DNA from: Stylophora pistillata
Lineage: Eukaryota
Assembly: GCF_002571385.2 (NCBI RefSeq)
Contig: NW_019217790.1
Coordinates: 1,189,242-1,253,241 of the forward strand
Length of the DNA stretch: 64,000 bases
Reading direction: 5' to 3'
Below, piece after piece: positions 4,159 to 17,338 of the stretch; position 1 is the first letter of the stretch; each line of letters begins with the position of its first letter. The notes beneath the pieces were generated by a model. That model did no database searches, was not told the DNA's origin, and saw only the letters and a list, made by a program, of their open reading frames with translations. A program made the translations under genes and the position numbers.

Positions 4159-7100
4159 TTATATGCTACCAGGTACTTCAGTCTTTGATGCTTGTCTTGG
4201 TTTTTTAGCTGGAGATACATGACACTGAAAATAAAATAAATTCCCAAGTTCATTATTACCAGTATTATGGTATTTATTGATTTACTGAAATTAGACTGAA
4301 AATTTGATGCAAAAGAAGCATAATCAACAGTGCTAAAAATATCAAATTTTGCATTTCATTCTTTTTCTAAGCACAATTTATAGGTCAAACACTTCAGATG
4401 CCTGCATAACCACATTTATTTATTGTAACCTCAGCAACTTGATGTGCATGACATAAAAAAAAGTGATTTCAACAATAATAATACCACAGAAAGCCCTTTT
4501 GGTAACATATACAATTCAACAAGTGAATGTATAGAGTTATTCTACATTGAAAATATACCCATTAAACATTTCAAAGTACTGTTACCTTTTCCCATCTCTC
4601 CAACATTTTTGCATACTCTGCTTCATAAAACCTGAACACCTCCTCGCAGTCCTGTAAAGAGAATTCATGAGTAACTTAGAATGGAATTTAAAAGTTTGGA
4701 TTATGTTGAAGAACTGCACTACTTAGCATATTGACATGGTGCTATAAAAATTTAGATTTGAACATTATTTTCAAGAAGTATTCCAGAAACACTAACAGAA
4801 TAGAGGAATTCTCCCAAGTTGACATAGCCCTATAATCAACTTATCGCTGAGAGAGTTGGTATAATTCTTGCAATTTCTACAAACCTGAGACCATCCCTGT
4901 TAATAACTGTTACTGGTTTGCATAACTGTCTTTAGTTCTAACAATAACAATAATAACATTTATTATTACACGACTCGGGCAGTCAGAGGGCCAATAACTA
5001 AAATCAACCAATCAAAATGCTCTATTGCTGGTCAATATTCTCTCAGTATTGGACCGGGCACTGTCCCGAATGGTCCCGAATGATACCGCACTTGTGTCCC
5101 TTTGAACTTCAGTCGTGTAATACACCTTTTGCTGATCATTTAGGTGAAAAAGATGTTCATTTTTGCGAAGTGTAGAATCAATAAGGCGAATATACATTCT
5201 ATAACACCAAGAAGCACTTCATTAACGCCACGGAACATTCGAGAGCGCAATTTGCATATTTATAAACGATCAATAGTGTCAACGAACAAACAAGAGTATC
5301 TATCGAAAATCAAGGATGCCAAGTGAACATTTCAACACGGGCAATTGACAATCAGTAACACCAAAAGAAAATCATTAACATCTTGTGACAATCTCTCCTC
5401 TTATAGCTCGTCCTTGACTTCGTGCGGTCCAAATATTGTAGCCACACTCATCTACAAATACAGTGTGATTTACGACTGCATGACCCATGAACCGGTTTCC
5501 ATATTCTACTCGTTTTTGAAGGACATCAGGGCGGTTTCTATCAGCCAGCAGAGGTCTTGCCAATTTCACTCGATATAAGATTCCTTCGAGAGCTCTCGCT
5601 ACGGTACGGTCATGAATTATCGGCTTATGTGGAAGGCGTAGTCTCAATTCGCAATTCCTCTCGGCAATTGTTAGAAGGCAATTTTCATTGATAGTGTCAT
5701 GCAGACAGTCCCGCATGGCATCATCTACTCGTACATGATTGGCGCCACCTTGCGGTCTTTCAGCTATCCTTCCTTCTCGGACGTAGTGTGAAACTATACC
5801 TCTTGCAGTCGATCTATTTACTCCTATAGTTTCAGCAATCACCAAATAATCTTCATGGACATCTTCAAAGGTGAGGACAATCCTTTCACGTTGTTGCAGA
5901 GAGATTCGGTTTCTGGGTGGCATTCTTTGACTCTTGTACTGTACAGTACTGTACTGTACATGTACCTGTATTACGCGGACAGTGTTACGTTCAAAGATAT
6001 TCCTCCTTTTATAGCTGTCTCAGGAAAAGATTGAGCAACTTCAAATTTAAATGATAACCTACATGTACACGTACTTTCTTGCCTATTGGCCATTGTTTGT
6101 TATATTTTGACAACTGGTCGTGAACTCACTAATGAACACTTTTTTTCTTCCTATTGAAAATACTCATCATTCAAATGATTGTTCGAATCGCGGGATGGAA
6201 TGTTACTTTGCAATGAATAATTGTCTCTTGATGCCATTAATTGTGCCTCTTCATTCTAATTGTCTTATTGAATGTTCCTTTTTCACTTATGATTGTCCGA
6301 AGATGTTATTGATTTTCTTTTGGTGTTTTTGATTGTCAATTGCGCGCGTTTAAATGTCCACTTGGCGTCCTTGATTGTCAATAGATGCTCTTGTTTGTTC
6401 GTTGACACTATTGATTGTTTATAAACATGCAAATTGCGCTCTCGAATGTTCCGTGGCGTTAATGAAGTGCTTCTTGGTGTTATAGAATGTATATTTGCCT
6501 TATTAATTCTACACTTCATGAAAATGAATATCTTTTTTGCCTAAATGATCAGCAAAAGGTGTAAATCTCTTATTAACCAAGCTTGCTCGGGACCGTACTG
6601 GAAGAATATCGGCCCTAGGTCTTTTTTGTACGGACCTCGCTGTGCTCGGTCTGTACTGTCAAGACCTCCGGCCGATATTCTCCCAGTATGGCCCTCACAC
6701 TTGGTTCATCAGATATATTTATTTGTATTGTGCCTTTTCTATAAAATATTCAAAAGTGCATCACAACAGTAATTAATAACTAAAATTATACAATTTTTTC
6801 TATAAAAATCATAAATTATATATATTTATTTACATTAAATTAATGAAAGATAATTACAAATAAAAATATAGATATACTAAGAGAATTGAAATGATTCCTT
6901 AAATAAAAATGTCTTGAGTAAAATCTTAAAAGATGCTAAGTTCGTTGCTTCACGCACGGACCTTGGCAGCTTATTGGCAGCTTGGCAGCTTATTCCATAG
7001 GAAAATTTTCCCTTCTCCCTGAAGTTTAGATGGGGCTATGTGAACGTGGAAAAAATCCTATTTTGCCTGAAATAATATAGAAATCAACTGACCTGTCGAA

Positions 7101-16900: not shown

Positions 16901-17338
16901 ATCATAGCTTGAAAAAGACCCCAGGATCGCAACTCCAAAGCTCTGGACATTATTTCCCATTAGAATATAATTTCCACACTCACCGACTCAACTCTCCTTG
17001 TGCCCTGAAAGCACTGATAATGGATGAATATGCCTCTAGCTCTAAACATTGCAAAAAAAGAAGCGTTTGATTTTTCTGGTGCTTTCCTAACCTTCATGGA
17101 AGCTTCAAGGGGGAACTAAAAACCTGCATGCTTGTCCAAAAACTCACAGATATATCTAAGAAAGGTCTCATTTAAAGTAATTTTACTGCATCACATTTTT
17201 GCTGCAAATAATATATTTGTATAGTATAGTCCACGTAAGATAGAGAGTACATTCGAAAAAATACAAATTCAGCTTACCAAGCCTCCTGAGGATCCTCTTG
17301 GCTTCATCTCTACTAACATCCACCATTTCTGCACACAT
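4159..17338 (-). CDS. EMSY: EMSY-like protein (N-terminal ENT domain, long S/T/V/P-rich and acidic middle, C-terminal bromodomain), about 1257 aa
   Basis: 14 phase-consistent GT-AG coding exons: 17338-17278, 17041-16984, 15523-15482, 15365-15291, 14612-14455, 13962-13855, 13298-12415, 11829-11574, 10867-9130, 8462-8380, 7918-7839, 7191-7093, 4651-4586, 4224-4159 (sum 3774 nt). N-terminus KRILRRLELEAYSSIISAFRAQGELS...ISTERHRAEVRRA...EGRRLVPLMPRLVPQT is diagnostic for EMSY. Confidence 0.9.
5123..6561 (-). mobile_element. Tc1/IS630-superfamily DNA transposon, internally deleted, long TIRs
   Basis: About 265-bp imperfect TIRs (CACCTTTTGCTGATCATTTAGG...CCTAAATGATCAGCAAAAGGTG) flanked by TA at 5121-5122 and 6562-6563; contains a transposase fragment. 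Confidence 0.9.
5375..5923 (-). pseudogene. Truncated IS630/Tc1-type transposase
   Basis: 182-aa ORF with HTH (IAETIGVNRSTARGIV) and the first catalytic motif VFVDECG, then runs into the left TIR; remaining D/E residues are absent. Confidence 0.85.
7729..7884. repeat. Perfect 52-bp tandem triplication spanning an EMSY exon end and its splice donor
   Basis: Identical units at 7729-7780, 7781-7832, 7833-7884. Confidence 0.95.
9651..9743 (-). repeat. Coding 18-bp minisatellite encoding (GTSVED)x5
   Basis: CCATCCTCCACAGATGTC repeated five times inside the largest EMSY exon. Confidence 0.95.
10942..11242 (-). mobile_element. tRNA-derived SINE with (TTA)n tail
   Basis: Minus strand A box TGGCCAAGTGG and B box GGTTCGAGTCC, followed by non-tRNA body and microsatellite tail. 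Confidence 0.75.
14870..15128. mobile_element. Twin-hairpin non-autonomous element
   Basis: TTATTATCCAA...TTGGATAATAA-ATCTC-TTATTAAACA...hairpin...GATAAGATATA. Confidence 0.6.
15565..15825. repeat. Diverged tandem duplication of about 131 bp
   Basis: AAGATGAAGGCATAGAGTTTACA...CACAGCTTTCAAAC occurs twice in tandem. Confidence 0.85.
16004..16669 (+). mobile_element. Solo LTR (probably Gypsy type)
   Basis: TGTTA...TAACA termini, 4-bp target duplication ATTC (16000-16003 and 16670-16673), AATAAA at 16609. Confidence 0.85.

Follow-up and report, generated by a model that had tools for sequence, protein, structure and literature searches.

EMSY of the coral Stylophora pistillata joins an N-terminal ENT domain to a C-terminal bromodomain, a widespread but apparently undescribed layout in animals

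EMSY is implicated in breast and ovarian cancer, and to our knowledge the only known folded domain of its product is the ENT domain. The human genome has a single ENT gene, as the genome described in this text appears to have, and human EMSY carries HP1/ZMYND11-type sites near the ENT domain (PMC3122151); the human protein is found in a KDM5A/SIN3B complex at active promoters rich in trimethylated lysine 4 of histone H3 (H3K4me3) (PMC10578193), and fly EMSY is an essential member of the SIN3 220 complex (PMC6242963). Outside animals, EML1/2 of Arabidopsis, which have ENT and Tudor domains, bind GTE4, a BET protein (bioRxiv 10.1101/2024.07.25.605061), a Leishmania ENT protein belongs to the BDF5/BDF3 complex (PMC9279504), and a Trypanosoma cruzi ENT protein occurs with BDF3/BDF5, with a predicted ENT-BDF3 contact (bioRxiv 10.64898/2026.03.22.713544). 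Here we describe the EMSY gene in a 64,000-nucleotide (nt) stretch of the Stylophora pistillata genome (contig NW_019217790.1, positions 1,189,242 to 1,253,241; hereafter the window), which encodes both an ENT domain and a complete bromodomain. The gene is a typical representative of an EMSY form that is common among animals and seems not to have been described before: no description of an EMSY bromodomain was found in the open full texts searched, most of which were judged by the title and the start of the abstract, with subscription papers and supplements lying beyond that scope. The layout itself can already be read from the Pfam domains assigned automatically to RefSeq and UniRef entries.

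The EMSY gene occupies 17338-4159 on the minus strand of the window and comprises 14 coding exons, whose 3774 nt encode 1257 amino acids (aa) with one terminal stop and no internal stop; all 13 introns are GT..AG. The ENT domain (about aa 14-80; 14612..17338) is encoded by exons 1-4 and the start of exon 5 (17338-17278, 17041-16984, 15523-15482, 15365-15291 and 14612-14455), with PF03735 exceeding its cut-off on exon 2. Exons 6-9 (13962-13855, 13298-12415, 11829-11574 and 10867-9130), the last of them 1738 nt long, encode the body of the protein, and the bromodomain (aa 1120-1236; 4586..9152) is formed by the last 23 nt of exon 9 together with exons 10-13 (8462-8380, 7918-7839, 7191-7093 and 4651-4586), as placed by the gene model, Pfam and alignment. 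Exon 14 (4224-4159) adds a basic tail (SP-x-KK) and the stop, with an AATAAA at 3918. In this rebuilt model the five last exons splice in phase onto the large exon and give the bromodomain peptide that a preliminary description of this DNA had quoted, and they are indeed absent, as it had remarked, from the 80-aa list of open reading frames. The nearest named proteins to the window EMSY are those of Acropora.

RNA supported all 13 introns, 12 of them as CT..AC joints exactly where modelled; intron 7 was present in contigs only, with one differing letter at the joint and a net length of 585 nt that agrees with the model. First mates mapped to the plus strand across exon-rich bins, and the RNA therefore derives from the minus strand. 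The key joint 9130/8462 was crossed by nine raw reads from seven starts in run X23 and by five from one start in run X24, about 2 in 100 of each run having been read, and by an unbroken 846-nt contig, covering 9687-9130, in both of the RNA sets X1 and X6; beyond it, the joints into the bromodomain exons showed equal depth. Introns 1-6 each had 2-5 raw reads in the two runs together as well as contigs in X7, and five of the six were also present in X2. The expectation of one transcript running into the bromodomain was thus borne out at every intron, including 9130/8462. It counts against this result that no single read or contig of this species covers the whole gene, the contigs breaking at 9687-9715 within an 18-nt tandem repeat in the open frame of exon 9 (9640-9744, 5.8 copies, in frame, with an acidic six-residue unit). 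Complete ENT and bromodomain proteins are, however, encoded on single Logan contigs of 3.7-5.2 kb in five relatives (P0015, P0017, P0032, P0080 and P0249), and these contigs are likely transcripts because they are too short for introns. That the gene and its ENT-bromodomain fusion are real we regard as close to certain.

To recover relatives, three word-based searches were combined with a full HMMER search of 1.84 billion representatives, of which the best 150 matches were used. Both domains were present in 43 named species from 10 phyla, specifically Porifera (2), Placozoa (2), Cnidaria (7), Mollusca (18), Annelida (1), Nemertea (2), Arthropoda (1, the millipede Chamberlinius), Echinodermata (6), Hemichordata (2) and Chordata (2, Branchiostoma), and three further molluscs had partial bromodomain models; taxonomy was looked up for three species, and the others carry their customary phylum labels. 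Among 21 unnamed two-domain representatives, 20 were looked up and each of the 20 had named animal members, and no named non-animal two-domain protein occurred among the relatives found, a set in which ctenophores, tunicates and unicellular relatives did not appear. Because the window protein and relatives were seeds of the ENT and bromodomain profiles built here, the scores of those seeds are circular; Pfam scans provided the independent check and recovered the ENT domain and the bromodomain alike in Sycon, Corticium, Trichoplax, Chamberlinius and Branchiostoma. Atlas searches returned only leads under 0.9. An N-terminal ENT domain with a C-terminal bromodomain is very probably the ancestral design for animals and, since it extends from sponges to amphioxus, it is likely that the ancestral EMSY could read acetylated histones unaided. 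Among animals other than vertebrates and insects this layout is the rule, and, as 10 phyla carry it and automatic Pfam annotation shows it, it is no peculiarity of the coral; surveyed across metazoans, the architecture remarked on in the preliminary description proved widespread.

The ENT half of the protein is that of EMSY. In the relative P0015, PF03735 matched aa 14-80 (E 4e-22) and PF00439 the bromodomain (E 2e-21, 76 bits), and the alignment to human EMSY (2fmm_E) had an E value of 1e-43. Across the 398-Mb genome PF03735 gave one match, at EMSY exon 2 (three candidates scored), a count that is a lower bound since the search ran exon by exon, and in the ENT tree the window EMSY groups with Acropora and Actinia. 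Immediately after the domain, RLVPL at aa 95 and an overlapping PxLxP at aa 101 (aa 95-105; 14534..14566) are identical to the human protein in the P0015 alignment, and this stretch we take to be the HP1 and ZMYND11/BS69 sites of human EMSY. MYND domains bind PXLXP (PMC9755447). About 990 low-complexity residues separate this ENT and motif hub from the bromodomain; by composition, the linker of exons 6-9 (9130..14455) is Ser/Thr-rich and basic over aa 131-690 (175 S/T, 56 K/R, 8 D/E) and acidic over aa 691-1095 (90 D/E, 24 K/R), and Pfam found no family on the exon 5, exon 9 and exon 10 frames. Just ahead of the bromodomain, an RKRK motif (aa 1102-1105; 9195..9206) is nearly invariant in an alignment of 42 proteins and is likely a nuclear localisation signal.

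The EMSY bromodomains form one group. The window domain matches that of Sycon at 57 of 121 positions and that of amphioxus at 67 of 121, and in a tree of 118 columns 30 EMSY bromodomains fell on one side of a branch and 38 others opposite (ultrafast bootstrap 100, Shimodaira-Hasegawa-like approximate likelihood ratio test 99), the outgroups being those among the search matches and not the full set of bromodomain families. The grouping is weakened by a first, quick tree, in which one outgroup row with a branch of 4.36 lay inside the EMSY group; that row was omitted from the second tree. With a tight EMSY-seeded profile, EMSY domains scored at least 102 bits, partial models included, and all others at most 86; among solved structures, the best single-domain score was 89 bits (BPTF), and no solved human domain therefore looks like an orthologue. 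The EMSY bromodomain is single and branches apart from the sampled domains of BET type, no ET family was present in the Pfam scans of relatives, and the proteins are not placed in the BET family. A genome search with the C-terminal part of a relative hit the window exons with 60-84% identity, and a further five sites with 35-45%. The top match of one word-based search (P0248) was set aside as an unrelated six-bromodomain protein, with a best domain of 86 bits. No free-standing EMSY-type bromodomain of vertebrates or insects was named among 55 matches of 7,986 candidates, in a weak search that spanned 630-2000 aa only, and about 15 bromodomain-only HMMER matches remained unnamed.

In the disordered body of bilaterian EMSY (P0030, P0022, P0083, P0250 and others), two motifs are conserved, LD-[PST]-x-TG and a landmark of the form V-x-VE-[PS]...[FY]TSQ, which may be partner-binding sites; neither was found in the cnidarian, sponge and placozoan EMSY proteins searched, and the landmark was not found in cnidarians, sponges, Trichoplax and most molluscs. 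With a threshold of 8 bits, a landmark profile built from eight bromodomain-bearing proteins only picked out 43 of 293 proteins, every one an EMSY. The landmark precedes the bromodomain by 20-150 residues and stands 152-284 aa from the protein end in amphioxus, hemichordates, echinoderms, nemerteans and Mya. Only the ENT domain was present in the seven named fish EMSY proteins (seven of seven, from six species) and in the insect Anabrus, and the landmark was recovered by pattern search in all six named fish proteins checked. Its distance to the end was 27-31 aa in five fish proteins and 6 aa in Anabrus and two similar unnamed proteins (40-43 bits); overall, fish and insect EMSY end 6-33 residues after the landmark, the pattern search giving 8-33 aa for the six fish proteins and Anabrus. 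Two unnamed proteins that branch beside fish end in the same manner. Because amphioxus and the millipede keep the bromodomain, two separate truncations are the simplest reading, given the accepted animal tree, and we expect with good confidence that the domain was lost at least twice. The proposal that the two-domain form is an ancestral state lost in vertebrates is accordingly supported by its spread, by the tree and by the ENT-only fish proteins, and insects appear to have lost the domain too, separately.

Several observations weigh against these losses. The fish landmark scores were weak (13-15 bits), and the insect loss comes from one named species and a few unnamed relatives. ENT-only models can also be false losses: an Acropora digitifera model (P0018) and a Branchiostoma floridae model (P0233) are without the domain though congeners or other isoforms carry it, and some unnamed models with the ENT domain only overlap others with the bromodomain only, as two halves of a single gene would (P0131/P0119, 44%, 525 columns). 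The ENT tree needs five changes, two of them forced by starred branches, and is too short to count losses. A chelicerate loss is not claimed: the models of the spider Uloborus and the mite Dinothrombium are ENT-only but without the landmark, and they were not counted because ENT-only models can be incomplete.

The bromodomain is complete and has the acetyl-lysine Asn, as the preliminary description had read from its motifs: PF00439 matched, exons 11 and 12 each exceeding the cut-off alone (26.3 and 28.9 vs 21.7 bits), and both Tyr1163, the ZA-loop Tyr of the acetyl-lysine pocket (7893..7895), and Asn1206, the BC-loop anchor (7117..7119), are present. Among 43 aligned proteins, Tyr1163 is conserved in 41 (two gaps) and Asn1206 and the preceding Tyr1205 each in 42, the Tyr1163 and Asn1206 exceptions being partial models. 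A small hydrophobic residue occupies the gatekeeper position (V 37, A 18, I 8, T 2; n=65 EMSY domains), and a His four places after the Asn occurs in 38 of 65 EMSY domains vs 18 of 327 others; the roles given to these positions are those of bromodomains in general. An AlphaFold2 model of the relative P0074, whose domain is identical to that of the window at 104 of 120 positions, was built from a 42-row alignment and had predicted local distance difference test values mostly of 95-98 over the bromodomain. The model superposed on the BAZ2A bromodomain with a root-mean-square deviation (rmsd) of 0.9 A over 109 columns (31% identity), and its identity to solved human bromodomains was about 23-33%. 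A canonical four-helix bundle with ZA and BC loops is predicted, and the domain probably binds acetyl-lysine; the suggestion that EMSY would have its own acetyl-histone reader rests on these conserved residues and the predicted fold.

The same ancient fused gene could instead carry a bromodomain that mainly reads an acetylated non-histone partner, a bulkier acyl-lysine, or a DNA or nucleosome surface via a basic insert, which we hold unlikely. The pocket rim is atypical: a Trp precedes the conserved Phe in all 61 EMSY domains compared vs 34 of 310 others, and upstream of the Trp-Phe lies a basic insert (mean charge +3.3 in EMSY vs +1.6 in others), and the ligand may therefore differ; the long stem in the first tree and the want of a solved orthologue, BPTF being the best at 89 bits, are in keeping with this. 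On the other hand, the retained Tyr and Asn, the small hydrophobic gatekeeper and the predicted canonical fold all fit acetyl-lysine binding, features that do not separate a histone from a non-histone ligand.

The full explanation that we prefer, and consider rather likely, is an ancestral protein with the ENT domain and bromodomain in cis, in which the bromodomain would keep EMSY, together with its co-repressor partners, at active promoters that bear acetylation. The human ENT domain is known to dimerise. So does that of T. brucei (bioRxiv 10.64898/2026.03.22.713544). By analogy, the coral ENT domain would dimerise and thereby carry two readers on long flexible arms, the bromodomain of each would bind acetylated histone lysines, and aa 95-105 would recruit HP1 and ZMYND11. 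By the example of human and fly EMSY, the coral protein would also sit in a SIN3-histone deacetylase (HDAC)/KDM5 complex, in which case the bromodomain would guide the deacetylase to its own substrate and help to reset or tune active promoters. Because human and fly EMSY both belong to SIN3/KDM5 complexes, the likeliest job of the domain would be to hold such a complex on acetylated promoter nucleosomes; that acetyl-lysine binding serves to target a SIN3-type complex is, on this analogy, somewhat favoured. Vertebrates and insects would each have lost the last ~170-230 residues, with targeting now provided by other subunits.

A variant, which overlaps with this explanation and differs only in the transcriptional outcome, is that EMSY reads acetylation as a co-activator-type reader, as plant GTE4-EML does, and does not guide a deacetylase. 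GTE4-EML lies on genes with acetylation and H3K4me3 (bioRxiv 2024.07.25.605061), an acetyltransferase belongs to the complex of the trypanosome ENT protein and human EMSY is at active promoters; however, SIN3/HDAC/KDM5 purify with each of the two animal EMSY proteins that have been studied, those of human and fly, and the window EMSY retains the HP1/ZMYND11 stretch, and we consider this outcome improbable. ENT-less EMSY isoforms may exist, since RefSeq has one for Acropora muricata (P0034, XP_067040709.1; 1101 aa, starting at about residue 100) in which the bromodomain is retained. Together with an ATTAAA in intron 9 at 8511 and the lack of a whole-gene molecule, this isoform could be taken to mean that the bromodomain exons mostly make a separate or ENT-less product, the fusion being a minor form or a predicted read-through. 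Exon 10, however, begins in phase 2 and the first helix is in exon 9, so the five exons alone cannot make the domain; moreover, the 846-nt contig of X1 and X6 spans 9130/8462, relatives have complete two-domain proteins on single contigs and such proteins occur in 10 phyla. A mostly separate product is accordingly very improbable, and a separate gene for these exons was rejected on the RNA joints and the spread of the design. The idea that the fusion is recent and confined to corals, or that it arose in assembly, for which we found nothing beyond the textbook vertebrate and insect proteins without a bromodomain, has practically no chance of being right given the same domain order, RKRK lead-in and single bromodomain group in sponges, Trichoplax, spiralians, the millipede and deuterostomes, and the RNA joints.

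Several other features of the locus were recorded. A perfect 52-nt triplication at 7728-7887 (3.1 copies, 100% matches) repeats the end of exon 11 including its GT donor; splicing from either of the two additional donors would change the reading frame, the RNA takes the first (joint 7191/7839), and RNA depth is none in 7307-7807. An exon 7 allele with an 18-nt in-frame deletion at 12782 is present in contigs of RNA sets X1 and X2. Intron 12 contains a DNA transposon (5121-6563), probably Tc1/mariner-like, whose inverted arms of 273 nt are 92% complementary and flank a frame of 214 aa that matches HTH_23 weakly, and RNA from other copies of the transposon maps heavily onto it. Head to head with EMSY, a plus-strand neighbour at about 18750-23000 has a Pyr_redox_2 domain (E 2e-9), which we take to be AIFM2/FSP1-like, and the two genes may have a common promoter region; tail to tail, a plus-strand neighbour at 715-1856 has a Hemingway/CFAP97 domain (E 4e-13).

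A bromodomain conserved in most animal phyla suggests what EMSY is for, namely to link ENT-based co-repressor contacts to acetylated chromatin. It brings the Arabidopsis and trypanosome reports together in one pattern and adds a bromodomain subfamily absent from human-centred catalogues. More broadly, and only tentatively, an acetyl-lysine reader may accompany ENT proteins throughout eukaryotes, as a separate protein in trans in plants and trypanosomes but in cis in the first animals. On the same tentative footing, the human set would be missing an EMSY bromodomain subfamily, a SIN3-HDAC/KDM5 complex with a built-in reader of the mark it erases would form a feedback loop on active promoters, and vertebrates and insects would have cut the domain off at nearly the same point, leaving human EMSY, an oncoprotein, as a shortened descendant expected to need a partner with a bromodomain, or some other reader, in trans. 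The novelty is limited in that both domains are well known and the layout is visible in InterPro-type annotation, and the function is predicted.

Compared with known systems, the window EMSY is like vertebrate EMSY/C11orf30 (PDB 2fmm_E, 1utu_A and 1uz3_A) and insect EMSY (Drosophila CG15356) in its N-terminal ENT domain, motif stretch and long low-complexity body, and differs from them in its complete C-terminal bromodomain. Invertebrate EMSY-like entries, including XP_067040701.1 from Acropora muricata, B3S7M2 from Trichoplax and XP_078613929.1 from Branchiostoma, have the same layout and are orthologues; the Trichoplax entry is automatically named 'Bromo domain-containing protein', and both Pfam domains are precomputed in such entries. 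With human BPTF, BAZ2A and the second bromodomain (BD2) of BRD2/BRD4, the EMSY domains have in common the fold (rmsd 0.9 A to BAZ2A), the Tyr/Asn pocket and a BET BD2-like BC loop, whereas identity is about 30%, none is an orthologue, and EMSY has the Trp before the Phe and the basic insert. EMSY is not mentioned in the searched passages of PMC8141815. In Arabidopsis EML1/2-GTE4, the ENT domain and bromodomain are in two proteins, in trans, EML has an Agenet/Tudor reader of H3K4me3 and the bromodomain is BET-type; no Agenet/Tudor domain stood beside ENT in the two-domain relatives scanned with Pfam, which had only ENT and Bromodomain and so do not fall among the plant EML proteins. In the kinetoplastid CRKT complex, which has an acetyltransferase, ENT and bromodomain likewise pair in trans, via a predicted contact of the C-terminal coiled coil of the ENT protein. 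Because the kind of bromodomain differs, the cis design of animals and the trans pairing of plants and trypanosomes may be convergent.

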